Below, piece by piece: positions 1 through 9,284 of a stretch of DNA of 9,284 nucleotides (the stretch's first letter is position 1; each line of letters begins with the position of its first letter). The position numbers were made by a program, and so were the translations under genes. The notes under the pieces were generated by a model. That model did not search any database. It was not told where the DNA came from and saw only the letters and a program-made list of their open reading frames with translations. The DNA comes from a virus (lineage: Duplodnaviria; Heunggongvirae; Uroviricota; Caudoviricetes): IMG/VR virus record IMGVR_UViG_2778261085_000014. One strand, 5' to 3'.

Positions 1-51
1 AACAAATCAAAAGGGGTTTTAATAACTGGCTCAAAGCTGAAAGCTTTCCGG

Positions 52-81
52 AACCCCCAGCCTAGCTGGGGGTTTTCTGTG
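52..81 (+). terminator. Rho-independent terminator-like hairpin: stem AACCCCCAGC / GCTGGGGGTT, 3-nt loop CTA, then TTCTGT
   Basis: Perfect 10-bp GC-rich inverted repeat (52-61 / 65-74) followed by a T-rich run on the plus strand; the minus-strand side has no T-tract. Likely ends a plus-strand gene lying upstream of the window. Confidence 0.5.
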
Positions 82-744
82 CACAAAAAAGTTTTATCTT
101 TACTAAAGATAAAACATAATAATTATGCTGCAGCGCTGAATTTTGACAACAAAATATATGAACCAGCAAATATTGTTGCAAATGAGCTCAGGAAGAAAAA
201 CAAAAAATTAGTTATATTTAACCCTTATGGCTCTCAGAATAGCAGAACCTTATCTGATGAACAGATAAACAAAGTACTAGCTTACCTTAATAACCTTAAG
301 GGATATCACACAATAGTTTTTAATATGGGAAAACAGATTAATCACAATGGATTGGATAATGTGTCTCTATCTCCATTTTCTGATGCAGGATGTTCATTTG
401 CATTGGTTCGTCATGCTGATTTTGTTATAACTGTAGATACTGCTATTGTACATTTAGCCAGTGCATTAAACATTAAACAATACTGTATATATAATAACAG
501 AATGCATGAAGGAAAATTCGAAAACAATATTGTGTGGGGGCCAAACAGCAAATTAGCGACTCAACTCACCACATCCGAACATCTAAGGTCTGAAGGGGGC
601 GACGATATGCATAAATTCGACATAATGATCTTAATTAATGCTATCAAACAAGATTTGACAAACGATATACCGAATTACCACTCGGATTTAGGTTGTAAAA
701 ATAGATCCAGAAACCCAGAATTAGAAAGTAGCAATTCTTTATAA
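79..744 (+). CDS. AT-rich ORF encoding a glycosyltransferase family 9 (heptosyltransferase-like) C-terminal domain; probably 5'-truncated or a stand-alone domain; start uncertain (GTG at 79)
   Basis: Translation contains KKLVIFNPYGS and ADFVITVDTAIVHLASAL, which resemble the nucleotide-sugar-binding C-domain of LPS heptosyltransferases such as WaaC (compared from memory). Only about 40 residues precede the C-domain motif, so the N-terminal acceptor domain appears absent. The frame is open back to position 1, but a GC-rich hairpin sits immediately 5'. Composition is visibly AT-rich against the adjacent GC-rich tail genes. Confidence 0.5.
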   Translation: MHKKVLSLLKIKHNNYAAALNFDNKIYEPANIVANELRKKNKKLVIFNPYGSQNSRTLSDEQINKVLAYLNNLKGYHTIVFNMGKQINHNGLDNVSLSPFSDAGCSFALVRHADFVITVDTAIVHLASALNIKQYCIYNNRMHEGKFENNIVWGPNSKLATQLTTSEHLRSEGGDDMHKFDIMILINAIKQDLTNDIPNYHSDLGCKNRSRNPELESSNSL

Positions 745-7683: not shown

Positions 7684-7877
7684 ACAACTTAGATGCATTA
7701 GCCCTGACATTTGCTAACGCGCTTACAGCAAGAATCATAACCAATCTGACAGCCTACCCGGTGTCAAAATCAGAAGAGCCTTACATTAGAATATGTTAAT
7801 TTGTAGCAAACAAATTTACACACAAATGATTACTGCTGAAATAGCCCCCATAAATGCTATGTCAAAGGATCCATGTT

Positions 7878-8543
7878 ATGAATATGCAAATTTTTATCGC
7901 ACCAGCAGCCACAGTTGCTGCAGTCTGCCTTGCTGCATATTTTGCTTTACGAAATGAACGTAAAAAGAAAGCACTTGAGATTAGAACAACTCAACTAGAT
8001 CGAATATCTGAGCTAGTAAACCGAGCATCTACCAATTTGATGCAATATACAGGTACTCTTGCCTCTATACTGGAAGCGCACGCCAAAGATAATTATCTAC
8101 CGAACAAAAAATTTGACATTAATGTAATTAGCAAATGGAAAGATTGCCTCGATGAGAGTGAGGTCTGGGCGATTGATATACAGCAACTAAGAACATGTCA
8201 GCACAGTCTGGAGTTTCATCGTGAAAAAGAATGGGCTGAATGGAAAAAAATAATTCCACCATTACTTGATAAAATTAACCAATTTTTTCTCATATCTAAG
8301 CCAGGGCAACCTGTTACGTTTATAAATGGCCAAAACAAAACAGCTGATGAACTACTTGTTTTCTCAAGATATTTGAGAAAACAAACAGCAGAAATTGAAT
8401 CAGTACGTCAGCTGTTACTTTCTCAAATGAGAGAGGAATTCATCGAGTTAACTAGCTTTGAACCTGTCACAATGTTTAGCTTATTTAAATCAATAAAGAA
8501 AAATGTCATGCAATTTTTCTGTATCAGTGCTCTTAAAAATTGA
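7878..8543 (+). CDS. Hypothetical membrane-anchored protein with no recognised family; AT-rich cargo gene inserted between D and ogr
   Basis: Uninterrupted 221-codon frame from ATG 7878, with SD-like AAAGGA at 7864-7869 (8-nt spacer). N-terminal hydrophobic helix IFIAPAATVAAVCLAAYFAL followed by a basic stretch, then a charged soluble domain of about 190 aa. Markedly AT-rich versus flanking D and ogr, and followed by its own terminator. Confidence 0.65.
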   Translation: MNMQIFIAPAATVAAVCLAAYFALRNERKKKALEIRTTQLDRISELVNRASTNLMQYTGTLASILEAHAKDNYLPNKKFDINVISKWKDCLDESEVWAIDIQQLRTCQHSLEFHREKEWAEWKKIIPPLLDKINQFFLISKPGQPVTFINGQNKTADELLVFSRYLRKQTAEIESVRQLLLSQMREEFIELTSFEPVTMFSLFKSIKKNVMQFFCISALKN

Positions 8544-8692: not shown

Positions 8693-8953
8693 ATGTTCCG
8701 TTGTCCGCTTTGTGGCGCATCTGCCCGTATCCGCACCAGTCGTCCGGAAAATGATTCAAACACCGTGCGGCAAAAGTATTACCAGTGTAACAACCTGGAA
8801 TGCGGCGTATGCTTCTCAACACTGGAAGCTTTCCATAAATTCACATCGAAACACGCCTCCGGCATCTACTCTTCAGAAGGTATCCCGTGGCATGAGCTGC
8901 CAGCTTCACACAGGGGAAACAATCAGATGAGCTTGCCTTTACCTCAGAATTAA
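8693..8953 (+). CDS. ogr: Ogr/Delta-family zinc-finger late transcription activator
   Basis: 86-aa ORF starting MFRCPLCGASARIRTSR...YYQCNNLECGVCF, with the Cys-x2-Cys ... Cys-x4-Cys arrangement and N-terminal MF-CPLC signature of P2 Ogr. Strong SD AAGGGAGG 5 nt before the ATG. Confidence 0.85.
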   Translation: MFRCPLCGASARIRTSRPENDSNTVRQKYYQCNNLECGVCFSTLEAFHKFTSKHASGIYSSEGIPWHELPASHRGNNQMSLPLPQN

Positions 8954-9013
8954 CAGGCAGAATTGCCGGAGTAACAAAAAAGCGATAGATTACGCGCGGG
9001 TGCCTTTCGGCTG

Positions 9014-9226
9014 ATGGTCGGAGGGAATACCCGAAGGCCAGATGTGGAAAGGCCCCGGAAAACATCTCTGTTTAACCGAGGCCCTAACCGCATTACCTTG
9101 ACAAGTGAAAGGTTAGCGCCTCTCCGGAAAAGGAGCAAGTGCTATGTCGCAAAAATCGCTTACGGCCATCACGTTCTGCGTGACGGCAATCCTCATCATC
9201 TGGATGTTGCACGGTTCGCTGTGTGA
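9014..9226 (+). CDS. mok-like reading frame overlapping the hok-like toxin gene; true start uncertain
   Basis: 70-codon frame beginning about 130 nt upstream of the hok-like ATG and ending inside it in a different frame, mirroring the mok/hok overlap of plasmid R1 hok/sok. Called from architecture only. Confidence 0.25.
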   Translation: MVGGNTRRPDVERPRKTSLFNRGPNRITLTSERLAPLRKRSKCYVAKIAYGHHVLRDGNPHHLDVARFAV

Positions 9227-9284
9227 AATACGGATGAGCTTCTGGGGAGCGGAGTTTGCGGCGTTCTTACAGTGTAAGCAGTAA
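9144..9284 (+). CDS. Hok/Gef-family type I toxin (small membrane-depolarising peptide)
   Basis: Manual translation gives the 46-aa peptide MSQKSLTAITFCVTAILIIWMLHGSLCEIRMSFWGAEFAAFLQCKQ. It has an N-terminal transmembrane helix followed by the SLCEIR and E-x-AAF motifs characteristic of Hok/Gef peptides. AAGGAG SD 8 nt upstream. The stop TAA is the last codon of the window. Too short for the supplied ORF track. Confidence 0.65.
   Translation: MSQKSLTAITFCVTAILIIWMLHGSLCEIRMSFWGAEFAAFLQCKQ

Follow-up and report, generated by a model that had tools for sequence, protein, structure and literature searches.

The stretch of DNA analysed here (the window) comprises 9,284 nucleotides of a tailed-virus record, IMG/VR IMGVR_UViG_2778261085_000014, and on its plus strand the final three bases are the stop codon of a 46-codon gene. 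An earlier note, made from the letters of this DNA, had described that gene as a Hok/Gef-type toxin locus next to ogr, preceded by a Shine–Dalgarno sequence and overlapped by a longer mok-like frame. The neighbourhood is as described, since 8693–8953 is matched by Ogr_Delta, and the ATG, the stop codon and the ribosome-binding site AAGGAG (9130–9135, 8 nt upstream of the ATG) all lie where the gene had been placed. Its absence from the list of open reading frames, to which the note also drew attention, is due to its small size only, and RefSeq does annotate it in an E. coli copy that is 99.9% identical (WP_000078916.1, "Hok/Gef family protein"). The remainder of the window is a P2-type tail cluster encoding gpU, the tape measure protein, the tail tube FII, the tail sheath FI and gpD. 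The reading frames at the right-hand end are:

8693–8953, plus strand: ogr, P2-type late-gene activator (Pfam Ogr_Delta, 52.4 bits; RefSeq annotation), a neighbour outside the module
9014–9226, plus strand: mok-like open frame of 70 codons (from the reading-frame listing), real in this window and probably non-conserved
9144–9284, plus strand: hok toxin gene, ATG start, 46 codons and stop

The peptide encoded by 9144–9284, MSQKSLTAITFCVTAILIIWMLHGSLCEIRMSFWGAEFAAFLQCKQ (46 aa), is recognized by the Pfam family HOK_GEF (PF01848) with 29.9 bits against a cutoff of 22 (E = 4e-7, profile positions 5–42 of 42), which is well beyond chance, and by PHROG 251 with 80.6 bits, while none of the PADLOC models searched with it match. 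The Hok/Gef family search that had been suggested as a check is therefore positive, and the proposed family signature is found at the level of single residues: L26, C27, E28 and E37 fall in columns conserved among HokA, HokB and HokC and correspond to L30, C31, E32 and E41, which are given as conserved in a recent survey of Hok homologues (Escalera-Maurer et al. 2026, bioRxiv 10.1101/2025.08.07.668861). The predicted N-terminal transmembrane helix is likewise upheld by a hydrophobic stretch over residues ~5–23, with mean Kyte–Doolittle values of 2.2–2.55 in 15-residue windows and a maximum of 2.55 at residues 8–22. The closest NCBIfam model is HokA (NF007290), and the score of 34 bits lies below the equivalog cutoff of 89; together with an identity of 41% to K-12 HokA, this rules out that the peptide is HokA itself. 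Identity to HokB and HokC is 24–26%. A pN/pS of 0.18, obtained from 23 distinct coding sequences that specify five peptides and pushed downward by the selection of the viral loci on peptide identity, indicates that the peptide is under purifying selection. In Table S2 of the survey preprint, the same peptide is entry 72_1621 of a high-abundance cluster (plasmid LRP137), which was cloned for an overexpression toxicity test. The earlier note had also named toxicity as a check, and in the text of the survey 42 of the 45 homologues tested are toxic and the three named exceptions exclude 72_1621.

The window is assigned to a P2-like prophage (Peduoviridae, Xuanwuvirus), and the module also lies inside the genome of an isolated phage, P88. 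P2-like Xuanwuvirus genomes carry it at 93–97% identity, the copy in P88 being 96% identical and occupying positions 34445–35068 of 35814 bases. The chromosomes of many E. coli strains contain the final 685 bases of the window at 99.9% identity, and 1553 of 5426 complete E. coli genomes contain a match (60–99.9% identity, some of them partial), which covers at least 80% of the query in 1158 of the 1553. In E. coli O55:H7 CB9615, the prophage end adjoins ihfA. As the note had pointed out, the gene reaches the window edge and its 3′ elements are out of sight. Many IMG/VR provirus contigs with this gene end 3 nt past the hok stop codon, so that the edge most likely arose in boundary calling, an artefact by which the 3′ untranslated region was lost. 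For the analyses below, the 3′ flank was borrowed from the 99.9%-identical CB9615 copy, with window positions obtained by adding 5599 to the position in that copy (L001); all elements of the module are intact and there is no insertion sequence.

The elements of the predicted hok mRNA are, in order:

8963–8968, plus strand: presumed −35 box of the hok promoter, TTGCCG, read from the sequence 17 nt upstream of the −10 box
8986–8991, plus strand: −10 box of the hok promoter, TAGATT, aligning with TATAAT of K-12 hokC and TAGGAT of hokB
8998–9012, plus strand: predicted 5′ end of the hok mRNA with the tac-like element GGGUGCCUUUCGGCU, placed at the first position of the Rfam RF01794 match
9002–9038, plus strand: 5′ local hairpin able to sequester tac in the nascent transcript (GCCTTTCGG with CCGAAGGC), from pairing across 29 loci
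9048–9056, plus strand: ucb-like box AAAGGCCCC, alternative partner of the 5′ end in the 3′-shortened mRNA, from the Rfam model pairing and the leader-only fold
9122–9135, plus strand: local hairpin hiding the hok ribosome-binding site (CUCC 9122–9125 with GGAG 9132–9135), from the consensus fold

The −10 box lies, in the alignment, 6–7 nt upstream of the conserved GGGTGC, and its equivalents in relatives are TAGAAT, TAAATT or TAGAGT. A consensus promoter scan of the extended locus reported no sigma-70 site on either strand; its threshold was nine consensus positions, and the hok and sok promoters, with 8/12 and 6/12, were placed by homology. Both are thus weak compared with the consensus. The core GGGTGC of the 5′ end shows no variation in any relative or in K-12 hokB and hokC, and GGCACCC, the reverse complement of GGGTGCC at 8998–9004, is found 61–67 nt past the window end, with an intrinsic terminator downstream. 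An RNA of 355 nt that starts at 8998 and ends shortly after GGCACCC reaches −161.5 kcal/mol in its minimum-energy fold, compared with −118.6 ± 5.2 kcal/mol for shuffled sequences (z = −8.2), and in this fold its first 15 nt pair with its last in a 15-bp closing stem. Among 29 distinct loci, the pairing between tac and the 3′ end is possible in 96.5% of cells. The seven core pairs of GGGUGCC and GGCACCC are kept in the consensus fold, with all changes being from G-C to G-U, and the extension of the closing stem shows one compensatory change and some unpaired cells. Compensatory changes are also seen in a hairpin 3′ of the hok stop codon. Similarity between loci in differing genomic contexts ends ~8 nt past GGCACCC, and this limit marks the 3′ end of the module. 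A conserved hok mRNA fold, which the earlier note had expected to emerge with extended sequence, is consequently present.

The leader itself (8998–9146) folds at −61.1 kcal/mol (z = −4.05 relative to shuffles) and contains two complementary pairs that had been noticed by eye, GCCTTTCGG (9002–9010) with CCGAAGGC (9031–9038) and GGCCCCGG (9051–9058) with CCGAGGCC (9076–9083). The description of the leader as rich in fold-back complementarity is borne out. The second pair, however, pairs better on the minus strand, and GGCCCCGG and CCGAGGCC are for this reason interpreted as the complement of the putative Sok terminator hairpin. The 9002–9038 hairpin can pair in 98.7% of cells among the 29 loci, in columns that are almost invariant; when the first 48 nt are folded alone, a 5′ hairpin forms in another register (−19.6 kcal/mol, z = −2.2). 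The stem between the 5′ end and the ucb-like box forms in the leader-only fold and pairs in 99.2% of cells; six of its nine pairs never vary, one cell carries a compensatory change, and the GCCCCG within the box is invariant, K-12 hokB and hokC included. Further downstream, the CUCC and GGAG columns of the hairpin over the ribosome-binding site are paired in 28–29 of the 29 loci, with changes from U-G to C-G present. Because the columns are nearly invariant within the subfamily, covariation is no proof of the mRNA helices and, when tested, said nothing about any of the three alternative 5′-end pairings. Diversity was limited at the source, as the scan for relatives with one genome per species gave only seven loci and the viral scan gave 80 loci that are all 100% identical in the peptide.

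Rfam RF01794 ("sok") aligns over its whole length with 8998–9157 on the plus strand (48.4 bits, E = 1e-8). Of the covariance search that had been recommended, the full-length match is the positive part, but the score stays below the gathering score of 59. The strand of the match is no contradiction: in K-12, the model finds the hok-sense strand of hokC (118 bits) and hokB (110 bits), opposite the annotated sokC and sokB, and it is therefore a model of the hok leader. With 48.4 bits against 59 for RF01794 and 34 bits against 89 for the NCBIfam HokA model, the locus belongs to a divergent subfamily.

The earlier note had expected a Sok-like RNA on the minus strand, could not place it by eye and guessed its whereabouts as 8990–9100. 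Homology and strand-specific pairing now place it at about 9102–9041, with the following elements:

9138 to 9133, minus strand: −35 box of the sok promoter, TTGCTC, aligning with TTGCCG of sokB and TTGACC of sokC
9132 to 9116, minus strand: spacer of the sok promoter, 17 nt
9115 to 9110, minus strand: −10 box of the sok promoter, TAACCT, aligning with TAAGAT of sokB
9102, minus strand: predicted Sok start G, 7 nt downstream of the −10 box
9102 to about 9041, minus strand: putative Sok antisense RNA, ~62 nt, from the alignment with annotated K-12 sokB and sokC
9084–9076 with 9058–9050, minus strand: Sok hairpin GGGCCUCGG...CCGGGGCCU, aligned with sokB and sokC
near 9041, minus strand: Sok tail UUUCC, 3′ end approximate

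The −35 box overlaps the hok ribosome-binding site and is conserved in relatives (TTGACT in the 933W relative), and AGGTTAG, the complement of the −10 box, is invariant in 29 of 29 aligned loci. The motif GGTTAG/CTAACC also occurs at the −10 region of sokW, as read from the oligonucleotides of Takada et al. 2021 (PMC8621323). For the 62-nt RNA, the computed fold has −26.4 kcal/mol (z = −4.4), with a free, single-stranded 5′ tail of 9 nt; the 3′ end of the RNA is uncertain because the tail has only three U's. The strongest evidence for Sok is, in our view, the strand asymmetry of the hairpin. Over 25 distinct sequences, 224 of the 225 cells of the nine outer stem pairs can pair on the minus strand versus 168 of 225 on the plus strand, and the departures are all G.U on the Sok strand, which read as A.C on the hok strand. 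Hairpin energies range from −20 to −27 kcal/mol on the minus strand versus −11 to −16 kcal/mol on the plus strand, and the inner stem shows compensatory changes. The stretch recognized by the 5′ tail of Sok is the most variable part of the module, and this variable target may keep co-resident copies from cross-reacting. Sok is predicted to bind 30–40 nt upstream of the hok ribosome-binding site.

The overlapping frame at 9014–9226 had been described as mok-like, and here only the frame itself stands: its 70 codons exist in the window, but the frame is not conserved. Its product has no match among the Pfam, NCBIfam and PHROG profiles. K-12 mokB and mokC start 57–58 nt upstream of hok, beneath the 5′ end of Sok, and the codon aligned with the mokB ATG is ATT (9092–9094) in the window. 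The in-frame start options are TTG 9098, GTG 9044 and ATG 9014; the ATG lies only 16 nt from the predicted 5′ end of the mRNA and has no ribosome-binding site, and the TTG also lacks one, the nearest GAGG being 16 nt away. K-12 hokA was of no use as a guide for placing mok and sok, its leader being interrupted by IS150. Among 46 distinct leader variants of the subfamily with the same or nearly identical Hok, about 20 share the open frame of the window, seven start from another ATG, which lies 103 nt ahead of hok, and 19 are closed by a stop at −46, −31, −19 or −10, after which no ATG, GTG or TTG follows before hok. The closed variants include phage P88, the Stx-phage relative and copies from Salmonella and Citrobacter. 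The position of the frame's own stop also varies (+80 or +131). Since the frame is closed or without a start in about 40% of close variants while the Hok peptide is conserved, 9014–9226 is probably not a conserved mok. A conserved short upstream frame running from ATG 9014 to a point near the hok ribosome-binding site was considered as a stand-in for mok and rejected, as it stops after 4–6 codons in several variants.

The arrangement is close to that of R1 hok/sok (parB), the founding type I system. Both encode a small membrane toxin of the HOK_GEF family on a structured mRNA of ~350–400 nt, the 5′ end of which pairs with a 3′ fold-back element (predicted here) and has a second partner within the leader (a candidate here), in agreement with the mutually exclusive 5′-end partners of the R1 hok mRNA folding pathway summarized in PMC9841398. 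Both also have a cis-antisense RNA of ~60 nt (predicted here), whose promoter sits within the leader and which has a single-stranded 5′ tail ahead of a terminator hairpin. They differ in that R1 Hok has 52 aa and falls into cluster 47, whereas the peptide studied here has 46 aa and falls into cluster 72 (clusters at 60% identity), and in that the R1 system is plasmid-borne and the present module prophage-borne. The start of mok in R1 lies 58 nt ahead of hok, and mok must be translated as far as the hok ribosome-binding site (PMC9841398), whereas a conserved mok is not evident in this subfamily. Among the chromosomal systems, K-12 hokA, hokB and hokC align with the locus in the leader and 3′ elements GGGTGC, GCCCCG, CCGAGGC and GGCACCC, and sokB and sokC align with the Sok proposed here, including the hairpin with its G.U pairs; HokA, at 41% identity, is the nearest named peptide. 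In contrast to K-12 hokB and hokC, which score 110–118 bits with RF01794, the locus scores 48 bits, its hairpin hiding the hok ribosome-binding site is ~9 nt shorter, and it has ATT where mokB and mokC start with ATG.

[quoted passage not shown] Sequence elements, conservation, energetics and the strand-specific Sok hairpin were computed here, and transcription, processing, RNase III cleavage and biological role are modelled on R1 and hokW. From its promoter position and homology, a plus-strand mRNA of ~355–410 nt would start at 8998, and its 5′ end, GGGUGCCUU..., is predicted by folding to pair with the 3′ element ..AAGGCACCC, 61–67 nt past the window. By analogy with plasmid R1, the closed mRNA would be untranslatable and hidden from Sok. 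Slow trimming from the 3′ end would then remove the fold-back element, upon which the 5′ end could pair with AAAGGCCCC (9048–9056) and the leader refold to the active form. A short, unstable Sok, transcribed from its own minus-strand promoter from ~9102 to 9041 as placed by homology and strand-specific pairing, would pair with the leader and silence the active mRNA by RNase III cleavage, a translation block, or both. Once the supply of Sok ceases, the 46-aa Hok would be made, enter the inner membrane and kill or lyse the cell, an activity for which we rely on the literature. On the standard reading of hok/sok systems, such killing would be post-segregational or triggered by induction, and the role of the module is likely to be prophage addiction, assistance in lysis on induction, or both.

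In a canonical hok/mok/sok arrangement of the R1 type, the 9014–9226 frame, or its internal TTG 9098, would be a true mok, whose translation opens the hok ribosome-binding site and whose initiation is blocked by Sok. The frame is open in the window and in its nearest variants and is shifted by one base relative to hok, as is K-12 mokB; TTG 9098 lies beneath the 5′ end of Sok, like the mokB and mokC starts; and R1 does require translation of mok up to the hok ribosome-binding site (PMC9841398). Yet 19 of the 46 variants are closed without a later start and seven use another ATG, the stop of the frame shifts between +80 and +131, the mokB ATG position is occupied by ATT, and neither candidate start is well placed (ATG 9014 follows the predicted 5′ end by only 16 nt and lacks a ribosome-binding site; TTG 9098 is 16 nt from GAGG), and we consider a true mok of this kind unlikely. 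Also less likely than not is the conjecture that cluster 72, with its 46-aa peptides from P2-like and Stx prophages, is a hok branch that dropped mok. In such a branch, the refolded mRNA might be translated into Hok straight from the strong ribosome-binding site of the gene, with Sok acting via RNase III cleavage or by keeping the mRNA in its inactive fold rather than by blocking a leader peptide. The module could also be a decayed, silent hok remnant, as are several K-12 loci, in which the peptide frame survives and expression or Sok control is lost. In favour of this, both promoters are weak, there is no conserved mok, the Rfam score is under the gathering threshold, and in K-12 insertion sequences interrupt or border hokA and hokC. 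Against decay stand the intact state of every element and the lack of an insertion sequence, conservation from the promoter through the 3′ fold-back across different genomic contexts, purifying selection on the peptide (pN/pS 0.18, biased downward), the strand-specific preservation of the Sok hairpin, the presence of the module in isolated phages such as P88, and the cloning of 72_1621 for a toxicity test and its absence from the three named non-toxic homologues; a remnant is thus very improbable.

The hypothesis that the same module mainly serves the phage rather than addiction, either through faster lysis and progeny release on induction or through superinfection exclusion by killing of the infected cell, is a serious possibility, which we would put a little short of even. 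It draws on the finding that hokW-sokW approximately doubles the release of phage Sp5 after mitomycin C (PMC8621323), on the lowered plating of T4 in the presence of R1 hok/sok (as cited in PMC8621323), on the roughly four-fold enrichment of hok in prophages given in the survey (bioRxiv 10.1101/2025.08.07.668861), and on the position of the module at the prophage end beside the late-gene activator ogr. However, HokW is a different, 51-aa HokD/C-like protein of cluster 35 from a lambdoid phage, and a section heading of the survey states that hok is not enriched near defence systems.

The locus is ordinary and already catalogued, being named in RefSeq and in phage databases, with its peptide listed and cloned, and it has little importance beyond correct annotation. 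According to the survey (bioRxiv 10.1101/2025.08.07.668861), hok is present in almost 80% of available Enterobacteriaceae genomes, and 6290 homologues occur in IMG/VR phages, with an enrichment in prophages of about four-fold; by its own statement, the survey left out Sok, Mok and mRNA structure. What is added here is a coordinate map of RNA parts that lack annotation in this subfamily, namely Sok, the two promoters and the elements that pair the 5′ end with the 3′ end. Mildly new are only the non-conservation of mok, the variable target of the Sok tail and the loss of the regulatory 3′ end at the boundary. With regard to the first, mok is essential in R1 and non-conserved in this prophage subfamily, which, if confirmed, would be a modest revision of the generalized view of hok translation control. 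The last is a warning that a provirus boundary set at the last gene cuts away the 3′ fold-back element predicted to control the toxin.

The nearest prophage relatives also call for some care with names. The hokW-sokW pair of the Stx2 prophage Sp5 (Takada et al. 2021, PMC8621323) is, like the present module, prophage-borne, has been demonstrated to be a working type I pair, and carries the same CTAACC motif in the −10 region of sokW as the sok described here, whereas HokW itself (51 aa, MKQQKAM..., HokD/C-like, cluster 35) comes from a lambdoid phage and the present peptide, with 46 aa, belongs to cluster 72. Within cluster 72, where 72_1621 is identical at the peptide level in Table S2, entry 72_1589 is the hok next to lom in 933W and Sp5, with 74% peptide identity and 83% DNA identity across the module, and the preprint (bioRxiv 10.1101/2025.08.07.668861) has it likewise cloned for toxicity tests. 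This 83%-identical Stx-phage relative was considered as hokW and ruled out, since this gene beside lom is a hok of its own, with 46 aa, and HokW has 51 aa. Phage databases label the gene of the present locus "MokW-like host killing"; the label is a naming carry-over and no evidence that the gene is mok or hokW.

The most variable part of the hok/sok module is the stretch of the hok mRNA leader at about 9085-9105 (columns 113-136 of alignment A4) that is complementary to the single-stranded 5' tail of the predicted antisense RNA Sok. Here the mean majority fraction is 0.81 compared with 0.92-0.96 in the rest of the module, and 11 versions of the target are found among the 29 distinct aligned loci. 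Some E. coli genomes contain up to 7 matching places, and variation in the target may prevent cross-reaction between hok/sok copies that share a cell.

At the other end of the module, dozens of IMG/VR provirus contigs (L017, L019, L023 and others) terminate 3 nt past the hok stop codon and are missing the 3' untranslated region with the fold-back element, which is predicted to pair with the mRNA 5' end; the window likewise stops at 9284, the last base of hok. Placing the provirus boundary at the last called gene removes a functional part of the hok module.

A hok gene of the same subfamily, coding for 46 amino acids, adjoins lom in Stx phages, including 933W and VT2-Sakai (Sp5), and is left without annotation in several GenBank records. 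Its position in 933W is:

L005 770-910: 46-aa hok of phage 933W, adjoining lom

This gene differs from the published hokW of Sp5, which encodes 51 amino acids; if hokW sits elsewhere in those genomes, they would have two different hok loci.

Within the window, a further ORF lies between gpD and ogr:

7854-8543, plus strand: 229-aa ORF with a hydrophobic N-terminus, flanked by gpD and ogr

This ORF is low in GC, at 32-39% compared with 52-57% in the flanks. Searches of Pfam and PADLOC returned no significant match and no match, respectively, and a shorter, 221-aa version is named hypothetical in RefSeq (WP_001057122.1). As the annotation of P88, a P2-like phage with the module, has no gene of this size at the corresponding position, the ORF appears to be a second accessory gene.

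Three features are found at the left end of the window:

1-74, minus strand: Rfam STnc490 match (77.3 bits; gathering score 56)
52-115, plus strand: second, weak STnc490 match, on the opposite strand to the first
79-744, plus strand: 221-aa ORF with a GTG start, adjoining gpU and matching part of the glycosyltransferase family 9 (heptosyltransferase) profile

STnc490 is an Hfq-binding small RNA, the 3' part of which is lost at the window edge in the 1-74 match, and both matches share a palindromic hairpin, AACCCCCAGC..GCTGGGGGTT, at 52-74. The glycosyltransferase match scores 27.7 bits and covers profile positions 103-212 of 247; the ORF, at the left of the tail cluster, is possibly a truncated gene or an accessory one.

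A further small RNA match lies outside the window, in L001, the chromosomal copy in E. coli O55:H7 CB9615:

L001 3903-4047, minus strand: Rfam STnc540 match (41.3 bits; gathering score 38)

The match falls in the interval from the prophage end to ihfA.
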